IMG/VR virus record: IMGVR_UViG_2728369607_000007
Coordinates: 1-50,260 of that record
Length of the DNA stretch: 50,260 bases
Origin: a virus
Taxonomy: Duplodnaviria; Heunggongvirae; Uroviricota; Caudoviricetes
Strand: one strand, 5' to 3'
Shown: piece by piece, positions 34,493-36,838 of the stretch
Numbering within the stretch: position 1 is the stretch's first letter
Layout: every line of letters begins with the position of its first letter
The notes under the pieces: generated by a model
What the model saw: only the letters and a program-made list of their open reading frames with translations
What the model was told of the DNA's origin: nothing
Database searches by the model: none
Made by a program: the position numbers and the translations under genes

Positions 34493-35681
34493 AAAGACTG
34501 GCGGCACACAGTCGCCACACATCCACTAATACAGAGATATAACTATGAAGATTGAATATGCGCCCGAACGTGGGCGGGGATTCGTTCGCCCTGGTGAAAC
34601 TGAAAAACAACAAAATTGGGGTTTTTCAGGCATAAAAAAAGCGGCCCCGATATGGAGCCGCCTTTCTGAACAATTAACCTGCTGCGCCTTATGTGTATGT
34701 GATCCCAAACATAAGCACGGGAATGATAGCCGCTATCAGGCTGGTGGGCAATTACCTTGCTTGTTGGGGCCGTATTGTGCTGCCATTTTCATCCGTTCAG
34801 AACGTGAATATTTTTTTAGAAACTCATCAAGGACAAAAGCGCATGGAGCGAATCTTTCTGATTCATGCTCGAGCGCCATATTTTCGTGCTCTCTGTTCGT
34901 TTTTTGCGATGGTGTATTGGTTGATTCTTTATTGGTCATTGTGTGTACCTGTAAAGCAATGCGCCGGAGTTCCTCACGCCACGGCGCTGATGTTTTTTAT
35001 TCTTTGGGTTCAATACCGCGTTGCTGTAATTCTTTTCGGATTATTCGTTTTATCCAAGCTGCTAAAGAGTCATCACCGTCTTGTTGTTGTGCTTTTTCCA
35101 TCTTTTCCCGTAAGTCAGGATCTAAACGGAACTGGAAAGGAGGATTACCACGCCTTTCATTTTTGTGTGTTGACACGTCAATTACACTCCATGCAATGTG
35201 TTTATGTGTATATACACATTACACACAACTAGCACAAAAAACAACGCCCCGCAGTGATGGGAACACATACGGGGCGTCTAACCAAACCATTAATTGAGGT
35301 AACGATTATGGCTATAAAAGAGCATAGCTTACTCTTTATACACACACAAACGCCCCGGAAACGGAATAATCCGTTTCATAGTTCGGTTTTGTGTACTCAT
35401 CCTGGCGGGCGATTCTTACGGGACTTTAGCCGCCGTGGGCAGCTTGCTAAAAATGCCTCCAACGCGAATAGTCCAGGTTTCATTTCTATCGGTATTAGTT
35501 GGATATTCAGAGGATTAGCCAGTTCGGCTTCAAGGCGAGCACAGGTTTCTAACTGCCTTTGCCGAATGATTTCATCTTCTTGCGTCTGCGTGTCTTGTAT
35601 TGGTGATAGTGTGTTGTTGGTCATGGTACTGCCCTGTAAAGCAATGCGCCGTAGTACCTCACGCCACGGCGCTGATGGTGA

Positions 35682-35861
35682 TTATTCTGATTCTTTGGTC
35701 TTGCGGCGCTGGCGGCGTTTGATTTCGCCGCGCATGGCTGCGTTTATAAACTGCCCCGTGCTTTCACCTTCTTCTTTCACGTTCTCCATGCCTTCAATAA
35801 TTTCATGGGCAATACGTGCAGTTACAGATTGTGATTTTGCATTCTTTGGACCCGTTGCCAT
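35682..35861 (-). CDS. Small basic hypothetical protein (59 aa) in duplicated module
   Basis: ATG with GAGGGG RBS; basic C-terminus (RRQRRKTKESE); a 34-aa relative exists in the first module copy (34997..35101, minus). Confidence 0.35.
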   Translation of the reverse strand: MATGPKNAKSQSVTARIAHEIIEGMENVKEEGESTGQFINAAMRGEIKRRQRRKTKESE

Positions 35862-36053
35862 GTTTAACCCCTCATGTTTTTGGTGTAAGACAATATACAC
35901 GAAAAAAAAATATTTTGAAGGGTTGACGTGTAAGACACCGTTATTTTACATTGTGTCTTACACCTTGTTAATGCAAGGTACAGAAAAGACGAAACCCCGC
36001 AGTGCTGGAACACATACGGGGCTTCTAACCAACAACGTAAACTAGGAGCCGTT

Positions 36054-36608
36054 ATGGTTGCTGTAAATCATATACCACACCTTGTACACACACAAACTGC
36101 CTTTGTGTGGCGTTTTCTGGCACTGAATATCGGAGAAAAAAACCAGTTGATCGCCAGTGTCGAAAATAGCTATGATTCCCGCGCACCTCATAAAACGGGT
36201 GCCGGGATTGGCGTCCTGGGCAAAACTGAAGCGCATAACACGCGCCCCGCGTGTTTTTTTGTGCCGCATAGTCACACCTTATCAATGGTGGGCTGTACGG
36301 GGGCGGAGCAATCCGCGCCGGTTTCTTCAGTGTCCGGTTACGCCAACCCTGTACAGTCCGCCACCAGCGAAATTGGCGTTTCCGGTGGCGGTTATCTTAA
36401 CCACACTGAGGAGGCTGCCAACATGGCTACTATCCCTACCCTTGTACATTCTCAAACCGCCTTTCTCTGGCGCTTTATCATCTTTGGCGCGTCAGAACAT
36501 CAAATCATCCACGTAACCGCCTGGACGGAACGCGAAGCGCGTAGCCGTTGCCCGTCCGGTTGTGTTGCTGTATTCGCCGCCCGTATTCGCCAGGGGGTAG
36601 GCTTATGA
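36054..36608 (+). CDS. Icd-like protein, two tandem in-frame Icd-like modules (184 aa); internal start at 36423 would give a 61-aa Icd-like protein
   Basis: Repeated motif (I/L)P(H/T)LVH(T/S)QTAF(V/L)WRF at both module starts; AGGAG RBS before 36054 and GAGGAGG RBS before 36423; family from memory (P4 Icd-like cell division inhibitor). Confidence 0.5.
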   Translation: MVAVNHIPHLVHTQTAFVWRFLALNIGEKNQLIASVENSYDSRAPHKTGAGIGVLGKTEAHNTRPACFFVPHSHTLSMVGCTGAEQSAPVSSVSGYANPVQSATSEIGVSGGGYLNHTEEAANMATIPTLVHSQTAFLWRFIIFGASEHQIIHVTAWTEREARSRCPSGCVAVFAARIRQGVGL

Positions 36609-36838
36609 GCCAGGAAATCACACTACAACAGGCAGCAGAACGCGCCCACCAAATCGAAGTTATTTGCGCACTGGTAGAGGATTACCCTAGCATGATGACC
36701 GACAGCGAATCAGGGGCAATCATCGGCTTACTTAAACGCCTTAGCGGTGAGGTCTGCGTATTCCTGAGCGATGAACAGGAAAGAAGAACGCTTATTTCTA
36801 ACGAAAAAAAATGCGGAGGGGTACACCATGTGCAATAA
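36605..36838 (+). CDS. Hypothetical protein (77 aa)
   Basis: ATG overlapping previous stop (ATGA); part of a run of coupled small genes. Confidence 0.45.
   Translation: MSQEITLQQAAERAHQIEVICALVEDYPSMMTDSESGAIIGLLKRLSGEVCVFLSDEQERRTLISNEKKCGGVHHVQ

Follow-up and report, generated by a model that had tools for sequence, protein, structure and literature searches.

A mosaic control region with predicted antisense small RNAs, candidate repressors and a P4-type immunity cassette in a PICI-type phage satellite

The window analysed here is a stretch of viral DNA of 50,260 nucleotides (Caudoviricetes; IMG/VR record IMGVR_UViG_2728369607_000007, positions 1 to 50,260), and our subject is a region at about 34,930 to 36,610 in which an initial annotation, made from the sequence alone, had described an imperfectly duplicated module with hairpins and genes resembling icd. 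We conclude that this is probably a mosaic immunity region of a satellite of the phage-inducible chromosomal island (PICI) type, in which two leftward units, each combining a repressor gene with a gene for an antisense small RNA (sRNA), are joined to a P4-type cassette in the rightward leader. Unit 1 has a truncated rightward side, reduced to the remnant of the 5' end of a gene, and unit 2 stands at the head of the rightward replication operon; the rightward leader carries an isrK-like element with a terminator and a first pair of target sites, then the C4/CI RNA, and finally a second target pair over the ribosome-binding site (RBS) of an Icd-like gene. As a whole, the region can be described as a layered control region built from RNAs and repressors, with an antisense RNA that, as modelled, probably represents a new family. 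Expression of the sRNA and repressor function of the two small ribbon-helix-helix (RHH) proteins are what we infer from the sequence.

The repeats on which the initial annotation was built are real. Element 1 (TGGTCAT...GCGCC...CTGATG) occurs at 34929-35003 and 35614-35688 (75 nt, 84% identical, spacing 685), and element 2, a hairpin with its leader, at 35233-35285 and 35981-36032 (79-96% identical, spacing 747-748); an RBS and an ATG, at 35308 and 36054, follow each copy of the hairpin. Chance is ruled out as the origin of these repeats, for element 1 is found in 1604 and the hairpin unit in 1382 of 5426 complete E. coli genomes. The supposed duplicated module of ~0.7 kb, on the other hand, is not contiguous: only short islands are conserved, and the intervening stretches do not align directly. 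The two repressor proteins (59 and 60 amino acids) have no BLASTP similarity to each other, and the same applies to the two small open reading frames (ORFs) downstream of them. The gene start LVH(T/S)QTAF.WRF that had been ascribed to both copies is present in the second, but the first reads MAIKEHSLLFIHTQT and then breaks off, without AF.WRF. The duplication turned out to be missing from most related islands and variable in composition, part of what had been named as grounds for dismissing it, yet the elements of each unit are strongly conserved. Overall, the repeat observation is partly supported: it is sound after some correction, and the regulatory interpretation attached to it was right in kind and misplaced.

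The CCCCG hairpin of element 2 is best read as the terminator of a predicted leftward antisense RNA of ~80 nt, for which the window contains two genes, each with a candidate promoter:

35233-35313, minus strand: predicted antisense sRNA gene, copy 1 (covariance model R1, 85.2 bits; fold -32.1 kcal/mol, z -5.0)
35321-35326 and 35344-35349, minus strand: predicted promoter of copy 1 (reverse complements -10 TATGCT and -35 TTGTGT, respectively)
35981-36059, minus strand: predicted antisense sRNA gene, copy 2 (R1, 85.7 bits; fold -31.9 kcal/mol, z -5.5)
36067-36072 and 36090-36095, minus strand: predicted promoter of copy 2 (reverse complements -10 TATGAT and -35 TTGTGT, respectively)

The predicted sRNA is perfectly complementary to the leader, the Shine-Dalgarno sequence and the start codon of the first rightward gene; for copy 2 this gene is the ORF that begins with the AUG at 36054. 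It consists of two stem-loops, SL1 and SL2. SL1 is closed by the helix AGCCA/UGGUU and usually holds an anti-Shine-Dalgarno sequence in its loop (CCUC in copy 1), and SL2 is the CCCCG hairpin with a longer base and with U residues after it (a U tract in copy 1). The invariant UCUAACCA tail is explained as the 3' arm of the closing helix of SL1. A search of the window with the covariance model returned exactly these two copies, both on the minus strand and with 85 bits each, and one weak, terminator-like match. The latter (4306-4376, plus strand, 21 bits, E 0.007) belongs to the lambdoid prophage that the window also contains (1 to about 27000); only a GC stem and a U tract agree with the model, and it is therefore probably an ordinary terminator. 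The two copies have SL2 and the linker in common and differ in the loop of SL1; they are cognate to different leaders, but some degree of cross-pairing would be thermodynamically possible.

For comparison we gathered 88 related loci via element 1 and about 80 more via the hairpin tail. The inner stem of the hairpin covaries among them (GUG/CAC, CUG/CAG, AGUC/GACU, AGAC/GUCU, CGAG/CUCG and AAGA/UCUU). When the inner and lower stems of SL2 were scored over 43 distinct sequences, 96.8% of the cells were paired and 8 of the 13 pairs were changed on both sides; none of 500 shuffles reached the observed values, and sliding the partner reduced pairing to 40-53%. All 22 representatives (at most 90% identical) fold into the same two hairpins, SL1 and SL2, and against dinucleotide shuffles the fold has z values of -4.5 to -8.3 in ten of eleven members, both window copies included, and of -3.2 in the eleventh.

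Covariation of Watson-Crick pairs is symmetric between the strands, the hairpin lies ~35 nt downstream of a good rightward promoter and would hence be transcribed within the leader, and conservation of the tail could reflect a binding site on the plus strand. The hairpin and the UCUAACCA tail might, in other words, act in the rightward mRNA, as a 5' stabilizing stem, an RNase P-type signal or a nut-like site, with no leftward sRNA being made at all. We regard this explanation as improbable on account of several features that are specific to one strand. The frequent G.U pairs in the hairpin are valid on the minus strand only and many become A.C or C.A mismatches on the plus strand, and the U-rich tract after the stem likewise exists only on the minus strand, appearing on the plus strand as an A-rich run ahead of the hairpin. 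The mean folding energy is -33.2 kcal/mol for the minus strand versus -23.2 kcal/mol for its complement, a difference of ~10 kcal/mol, with the minus strand being better in 22 of 22 representatives; the complements of the two window copies have z values of -3.8 and -1.0, the latter, for copy 2, being like that of shuffled sequences. Action in the rightward mRNA also leaves the minus-strand U tract unexplained, together with a promoter hexamer held at a fixed distance on that strand.

This hexamer, TAnnnT, keeps a set spacing to the complement of the start codon in all 29 distinct classes of ORF N-termini (10 nt in 22 classes, 9 nt in 1 and 4 nt in 6; the background is 1.1% per position). It occurs as TATGAT, TATGCT, TATAAT, TACAAT, TAGACT, TAGAAT or TAAAAT, and the residues encoded at its position vary (H, C, S, L, K). 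A predicted transcript starting 7 nt past the hexamer would begin with AGCCAU, its A being at 35313 in copy 1 and at about 36059-36062 in copy 2, and would end in the U tract at about 35233 and 35981, respectively. The sRNA would start within codons 2-3 of the first rightward gene, with its -10 hexamer in codons 5-6.

Some observations weigh against a leftward sRNA, whose existence, 5' end and termination are model predictions. Several types have a weak -35 element or none, and certain members, such as those of Pseudomonas and Burkholderiales, have a poor U tract. SL1 alone is modestly stable (mean z -1.3), and the anti-Shine-Dalgarno sequence lies strictly inside the apical loop in 17 of 26 cases; since length variation made SL1 impossible to align with MAFFT, its support comes from folds of individual sequences and not from column covariation. 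The alignment used for counting pairs in SL2 had, moreover, been fitted to the covariance model.

The sRNA unit is widespread. The model gave 98 matches in the 88 loci chosen through element 1, and by blastn the unit is present in about a quarter of the complete E. coli genomes (1382 of 5426), where it always lies under a protein annotation or under none. A 14-mer pattern scan with one genome per species returned almost exclusively chance matches in unrelated taxa, from which true members were sorted by means of the covariance model. Beyond the enterobacteria, the unit was located at the following positions of our loci:

L202, 7360-7440, plus strand: sRNA unit
L225, 7079-7159, minus strand: sRNA unit
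L296, 1701-1780 and 5155-5235: sRNA units
L298, 2331-2411: sRNA unit

A member from Pseudomonas capeferrum lies opposite the start of an HNH endonuclease gene that is situated between terS and terL, and one from a Burkholderiales metagenome-assembled genome is antisense to an operon; more members were found in environmental viral contigs, one of which has two copies with different terminator stems. The operon opposite the units from Burkholderiales and environmental contigs can be read from its sequence as ArdC-like plus RadC. These distant members all retain the hexamer (TAnnnT in 5 of them), the AGCCAU start, SL1, UUGGUUAGAAG and the terminator. In Pseudomonas and Burkholderiales the unit precedes unrelated genes and is not accompanied by a repressor cassette. 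Rfam has no family at any of the sRNA positions, the INPHARED phage collection yielded no blastn match for the sRNA unit or for the 57-nt spacer element dealt with below, phage P4 gave no match to model R1 even with filters off, and no mention of this RNA was found in the literature searched by sequence and topic. The leftward RNA, as predicted, is therefore probably a new sequence family of a familiar functional kind. In E. coli 00-3076, a segment (NZ_CP027584.1, 965870-966315) agrees with the window at 100% identity across both spacer element copy b and sRNA copy 2; 4-5 places in this genome match each element, and one strain can thus carry several such islands.

In the window each sRNA gene belongs to a leftward unit with a fixed order: sRNA gene, divergent promoters with a candidate operator, gene for a candidate small RHH repressor, 57-nt spacer and small ORF. 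The components are as follows:

34736-34939, minus strand: small ORF of 67 amino acids (MTNKESTN...), last gene of leftward unit 1; phrog_21027, function unknown
34929-35003, minus strand: element D1 copy a, the 57-nt spacer between repressor stop and small-ORF ATG, with the hairpin GCGCCG...CGGCGC at 34961-34987
34997-35176, minus strand: candidate Arc-like RHH repressor of unit 1, 59 amino acids; phrog_228 Arc-like repressor, E 1.5e-6
35204-35219: candidate operator of unit 1, a perfect palindrome of 16 bp (ATGTGTATATACACAT) that separates its divergent promoters
35308-35351, plus strand: 5' remnant of an Icd-like ORF (MAIKEHSLLFIHTQT...), ended by the junction with unit 2 and containing the promoter of sRNA copy 1
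35358-35377: terminator-like hairpin after the 75-amino-acid small ORF of unit 2
35397-35624, minus strand: small ORF of 75 amino acids (MTNNTLSP...), last gene of leftward unit 2
35614-35688, minus strand: element D1 copy b, with its hairpin at 35646-35672
35682-35864, minus strand: small DNA-binding protein of the YlcI/YnfO family, 60 amino acids, candidate repressor of unit 2; NCBIfam NF041551, 64.7 bits versus a cut-off of 30
35883-35963: putative divergent promoter/operator region of unit 2
35923-35928 (TTGACG) and 35947-35952 (TACATT), plus strand: predicted rightward promoter of unit 2
35971-35943, minus strand: predicted leftward promoter of unit 2, with TTAACA and TAAAAT inside this segment

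Each repressor gene faces a rightward promoter across a symmetric sequence that is specific to its unit, namely the palindrome in unit 1 and, in unit 2, three copies of GTGTAAGACA (at 35883, at 35928 and, inverted, at 35954), two of which are inverted around the -10 regions. This arrangement suggests that the two small RHH proteins are repressors with different specificities. The protein of unit 1 reached 20 bits with the NCBIfam YlcI/YnfO model, below the cut-off of 30, and a PDB sequence search with the YlcI-like protein gave no match. The sRNA terminator abuts the -35 element of the repressor promoter, and read-through would hence add to transcription of the repressor gene. Homologues of the small ORF of 67 amino acids occupy the same position in related loci.

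The spacer is itself conserved. It was found in 1604 of the 5426 E. coli genomes and in no phage record, and the distance from stop to ATG is 60 nt in 41 of 42 variants. Its hairpin has a GC stem of 6-9 bp that is 92.6% paired, compared with 24-56% for slid controls. AUUGCUUUAC comes after the hairpin when the minus strand is read, the strand on which one pair is G.U in 20 of 24 sequences. Our leading guess is that it serves as a leaky terminator or 3'-end stabilizer of the repressor mRNA and sets the ratio of repressor to downstream ORF, and it might at the same time act as a barrier against rightward transcription that comes from alpA. This guess is the weakest part of our account: no compensatory changes were found in the spacer hairpin, and a few variants favour the plus strand. 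Other roles were considered for the spacer. The stop and the ATG are always in frame, but 8 of the 42 variants have extra in-frame stops, and as these include common variants (among them the two commonest), coding by read-through is unlikely. A mirror-image antisense promoter at the start of the small ORF was rejected, no conserved TAnnnT being present among the variants inspected, and pairing of C4 with the spacer loop or the hairpin leaders does not rise above background. Inspection of the variants revealed no association of spacer-loop variants with sRNA loop types.

In relatives, the canonical region consists of one unit; about 15 of 89 loci have two, and the whole arrangement of the window occurs in 17 of the 5426 complete E. 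coli genomes. In the two-unit loci, the rightward gene of unit 1 is always cut after the ACACACAAAC motif, leaving the sRNA gene and its promoter intact, and the small ORF of unit 2 directly follows the cut gene; the junction that truncates the remnant at 35308-35351 is identical in all of them. The isrK-C4 cassette is optional, and most loci do without it, a short Icd-like gene coming right after the hairpin. These patterns make the tandem state look like the outcome of recombination in a strongly mosaic region and not like a conserved design.

Recombination might then account for more than the tandem state. The same conserved islands flank many different repressors, small ORFs and leader ORFs, mosaicism in the region is extensive, and the tandem state resembles recombination at the conserved ACACACAAAC or hairpin sequences, all of which would fit islands that are junctions only, that is, linkers for swapping repressor cassettes between satellites, devoid of any function as RNA. 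Linkers, however, need identity; they do not need compensatory changes or a promoter hexamer that is kept through otherwise unalignable sequence, and they do not account for the sRNA unit in Pseudomonas and Burkholderiales, where it stands ahead of unrelated genes without a repressor cassette. We therefore consider it unlikely that the islands are linkers and nothing else, while for the 57-nt spacer such a role is conceivable. The predicted antisense RNA remains the better explanation of the hairpin unit.

Downstream of unit 2, the rightward leader holds a second layer of RNA elements:

36054-36182, plus strand: leader ORF, whose first ~24 codons are an Icd-like N-terminal fragment fused in frame to the 'Ash' frame
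36183-36259, plus strand: isrK-family RNA element (leader of the P4 seqA/seqB type), Rfam RF01394, 66 bits versus a gathering threshold of 50
36207-36214 (b1) and 36224-36231 (a1), plus strand: predicted C4 target sites in isrK, pairing at -16.7 and -12.2 kcal/mol
36237-36259, plus strand: isrK intrinsic terminator, in agreement with a terminator scan
36281-36368, plus strand: C4/CI-family antisense RNA gene, Rfam RF01695, 77.6 bits versus a gathering threshold of 45, full model
36322-36333 and 36340-36346: C4 loop a' and junction b'
36372-36379 (b2) and 36403-36414 (a2), plus strand: predicted downstream C4 targets, -15.0 and -20.1 kcal/mol
36423-36608, plus strand: genuine Icd-like gene, 61 amino acids, NCBIfam NF033153, 57.2 bits versus a cut-off of 25; it heads the operon that leads to the RepA-like helicase

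The 12-nt loop of C4, UUUCUUCAGUGU, pairs with ACACUGAGGAGG at 36403-36414, the Shine-Dalgarno sequence of the Icd-like gene, and ranks among the best 0.1% of the island's windows. For the junction ACGCCAA, AUUGGCGU is the partner at 36372-36379 and, within isrK, a second time at 36207-36214, there beside a second, partial target of the loop. Pairing was judged by a duplex test with the loop only, which replaced an uninformative sliding scan with the whole unfolded C4. The score for c4-a1b1 (Rfam RF03163) at 36170-36222 is below threshold (21.2 bits versus 46.7; P4 itself scores 44.1), and the C4 complementarity is present at the window's targets despite this. With its predicted pairings, the C4 immunity system is complete and follows the design of P4, P1 immI and Gifsy-1, that is, it is known in kind. 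The same Rfam search detects C4 at 8420-8507 (74.9 bits) and isrK at 8615-8692 (60.8 bits) in the cI/leader region of P4, which bears out the comparison with P4 that the initial annotation had suggested. Regulation by a small RNA as in P4 had been expected there at the repeated hairpins; a P4-type immunity RNA is indeed present, but it lies between the Icd-like units. The assignment of icd to P4 immunity was mistaken, as icd belongs to the immI arrangement of P1.

As to the ORF of 184 amino acids (36054-36608), which had been taken to contain two in-frame Icd-like units, the ORF exists and its second unit does have a strong RBS of its own (GAGGAGG ahead of the ATG at 36423), but this unit alone is Icd-like: NF033153 matches amino acids 137-180 only, and the first unit, from 36054 onward, gives no match to this model. 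The N-terminal Icd-type motif is repeated at 36071-36116 and 36431-36476 (76%). Since a short Icd-like gene directly follows the hairpin in the majority of loci, what was called the 'first Icd unit' is the stump of this gene, joined in frame to the cassette. Between the two units, Pfam Ash (PF10554) matches amino acids 40-133 (63.3 bits versus a gathering threshold of 26), in the segment that holds both RNA genes; on the DNA, the match covers 36171-36452.

Could the 184-residue product nevertheless be a real protein, either a tandem Icd-like one or an Ash-family regulator fused to Icd? The frame over isrK and C4 is open in 13 of 13 distinct C4-bearing loci, with one 3-nt indel that preserves it, phrog_29966 matches the ORF over its full length, the Ash score of 63 bits is well beyond its threshold, and in Gifsy-1 a short ORF (orf45) over a C4-like RNA is translated and needed for coupling (PMC4825925). 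The open frame and the Gifsy-1 precedent tell against a purely RNA-based view, and some translation of the leader over isrK and C4 may occur. The selection data point in the other direction. When the window was compared with diverged relatives, pN/pS, the ratio of non-synonymous to synonymous change, was about 1.1-1.5 across the isrK/C4 segments in three of four comparisons, which speaks against purifying selection on the amino acids, and was 0.4-0.9 in the genuine icd segment; substitutions in isrK and C4 are spread evenly over codon positions with no excess at third positions (relatives ~74% identical in C4). Constraint across isrK and C4 thus acts on the RNA and not on a protein. In addition, two RNA families with scores far above threshold occupy the Ash segment, the ORF contains an intrinsic terminator, and most relatives are devoid of the insert. 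The obsolete 'cI gene product' coding sequence of P4 (L300, 8168-8584), which is homologous, also matches Pfam Ash, and the immunity factor of P4 is, as we take it from the P4 literature, the CI RNA and not a protein. A functional 184-residue protein is therefore hardly to be expected; the ORF is a frame that happens to stay open across RNA genes and not a two-domain Icd protein. Pfam Phage_ASH (the 'ash family protein' of PGAP) appears, by the same reasoning, to be the conceptual translation of isrK/C4 (P4 CI) RNA genes. Several PHROG 'transcriptional regulator' families likewise include the Ash segment as an N-terminal extension.

With a genuine C4 RNA in the leader, the hairpins and the TGGTCAT...GCGCC elements could in principle be extra targets of the C4/CI RNA similar to seqA, seqB and seqC, and the loop of the spacer hairpin does contain UGGCGU and GAGGAA, two sequences akin to target motifs b and a. 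The pairing energies are -9 to -13 kcal/mol, about 1.5 standard deviations from the island background, with -10 to -13 kcal/mol for the repeated hairpins, whereas the true sites reach -15 to -20 kcal/mol, and most loci that have these elements have no C4 gene. That they are C4 targets is very improbable indeed. What stands of the proposal that the repeats are RNA-level elements is that the hairpins apparently are terminators of leftward antisense RNAs; they are not sites of the C4/P4 type.

Between the cassette (36160-36430) and the immunity regions of SfV and over 300 Stx-converting and lambdoid phages, identity is 72-75%. In these phages it is followed by Rha or antirepressor genes, and in the window by the Icd-like gene and the replication genes. 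Cross-talk between the C4-type RNAs of satellite and helper phages is conceivable. The lambdoid prophage of the window (1 to about 27000) has no match to C4 or isrK.

Judged from its gene set, the element that hosts this region is a capsid-forming PICI-type phage satellite, integrated beside roxA:

32679-33929: tyrosine integrase, first gene of the island, adjoining roxA
34304-34492: AlpA-family regulator
37803-39212: RepA-like helicase, Pfam AAA_25

The island encodes the integrase, AlpA, the RepA-like helicase, SSB, a major capsid protein, a prohead protease, a portal protein, HNH, TerS and TerL, and no tail genes were identified in it (32679 to about 47950); it thus combines int and alpA with a replication module and its own capsid, portal, protease and terminase genes, as a capsid-forming PICI would. 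The operon downstream of the Icd-like gene comprises small ORFs and DUF4222, followed by the RepA-like AAA_25 helicase. E. coli RM14516 carries a closely related island at the same site (95.9% identity over 85% of the query), and a simpler relative at the roxA-adjacent site of Nissle 1917 is a PICI of the classical type with one copy of the sRNA unit, at about 1312106-1312191 on the minus strand of NZ_CP007799.1. CFT073 and strains of O157:H7 are carriers as well.

Three further features of the region were noted. A strong bidirectional terminator-like hairpin at 34630-34672 (AAAAAAAGCGGC...GCCGCCTTTCT) lies between alpA and the convergent small ORF; being downstream of alpA, it must be crossed by transcription from the alpA promoter that is to reach the remaining island. 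An AT-rich hairpin upstream of alpA (34080-34161, plus strand) gave a sub-threshold match to Rfam BSnc120 (27 bits versus 114) that is probably meaningless. Finally, plus-strand ORFs at 34545-35297, 34693-35232 and 35254-36045 (179-263 amino acids) lie opposite the leftward genes and extend across the conserved elements; they are not supported by any family and look spurious. In one relative (L065), the plus-strand antisense frame is open over 766 codons.

The layers of this region can be set beside known systems. The Rfam C4 and isrK models match the P4 cI/leader region and the window at 36183-36368 alike, complementary target sites lie on both sides of the RNA gene in both, and in both the cassette is located downstream of an AlpA/Vis homologue and heads the replication operon. 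The downstream target of the window, however, covers the RBS of an Icd-like gene, as in P1, whereas the next gene in P4 is epsilon; the window has two leftward repressor/sRNA units between alpA and the cassette, whereas P4 has none; and the host element is a capsid-forming PICI and not a P4-like satellite. With immI of P1 and P7 (c4-icd-ant) the window shares a C4-family RNA that derives from the transcript it controls and whose loop pairs with an icd-type Shine-Dalgarno sequence, but there is no match to Ant, Rha or KilA among the window's ORFs downstream of icd, which fall into families of unknown function, DUF4222 and the AAA_25 helicase. As in the isrK-orf45-anrP region of Gifsy-1, an isrK-type element with a leaky terminator precedes a C4-type RNA (PMC4825925).

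The leftward RNA resembles sar of P22 and RNA-OUT of IS10. It is a predicted RNA of ~80 nt with a promoter in the first codons of its target, covers the start codon and Shine-Dalgarno sequence, presents its recognition sequence in a stem-loop and has its terminator in the leader; a conserved opposite-strand promoter in the 5' end of the target and a strand-specific structure that ends in an intrinsic terminator, the hallmarks of this class, were both found. It differs in that the predicted sRNA of the window has no sequence relationship to these RNAs and no Rfam family, and in that the conserved core AGCCAU ... UUGGUUAGAAGCCCCG precedes unrelated genes in different bacterial orders. By virtue of its complementarity to leader, Shine-Dalgarno sequence and start codon, the sRNA would be expected to block translation and probably to trigger duplex-dependent decay, like sar and RNA-OUT. 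The repressor layer, in turn, is reminiscent of Arc/Mnt in immI of P22, with a small RHH gene that is divergent from the operon and a palindromic candidate operator over the promoters; the difference is that the protein of unit 2 belongs to the uncharacterized YlcI/YnfO family.

More tentatively, the ~80-nt unit as a whole (TAnnnT in codons 5-6, AGCCAU, a stem-loop with the anti-Shine-Dalgarno sequence, UUGGUUAGAAGCCCCG and a terminator) could be a portable antisense gate. Such a gate would silence the first operon gene in many mobile elements of gamma- and beta-proteobacteria and, in PICIs and capsid-forming PICIs of E. coli, would, jointly with the RHH protein, amount to the repression system that has long been sought and that keeps the island quiescent. 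Induction would then consist in AlpA-driven, antiterminated read-through from the alpA promoter, across terminators that include the 57-nt element, and on through the repressor unit in antisense direction. Members of the AlpA family are able to act as processive antiterminators (PMC7969949; PMC9371919), which suggests that induction could involve read-through of this kind. Islands equipped with a C4 cassette could also detect immI-type RNAs made by lambdoid helper phages, or jam them.

No master repressor has been established in the PICIs of Gram-negative bacteria (PMC6092414), and how these islands are silenced is unsettled. The isrK/C4 part of the region is a known system of the type found in P4, P1/P7 and Gifsy-1, placed here in a different kind of satellite. 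Together with the unit-specific RHH repressors and an antisense RNA over the first RBS, this P4-type CI RNA, in those islands that carry it, is a candidate for silencing the PICI.

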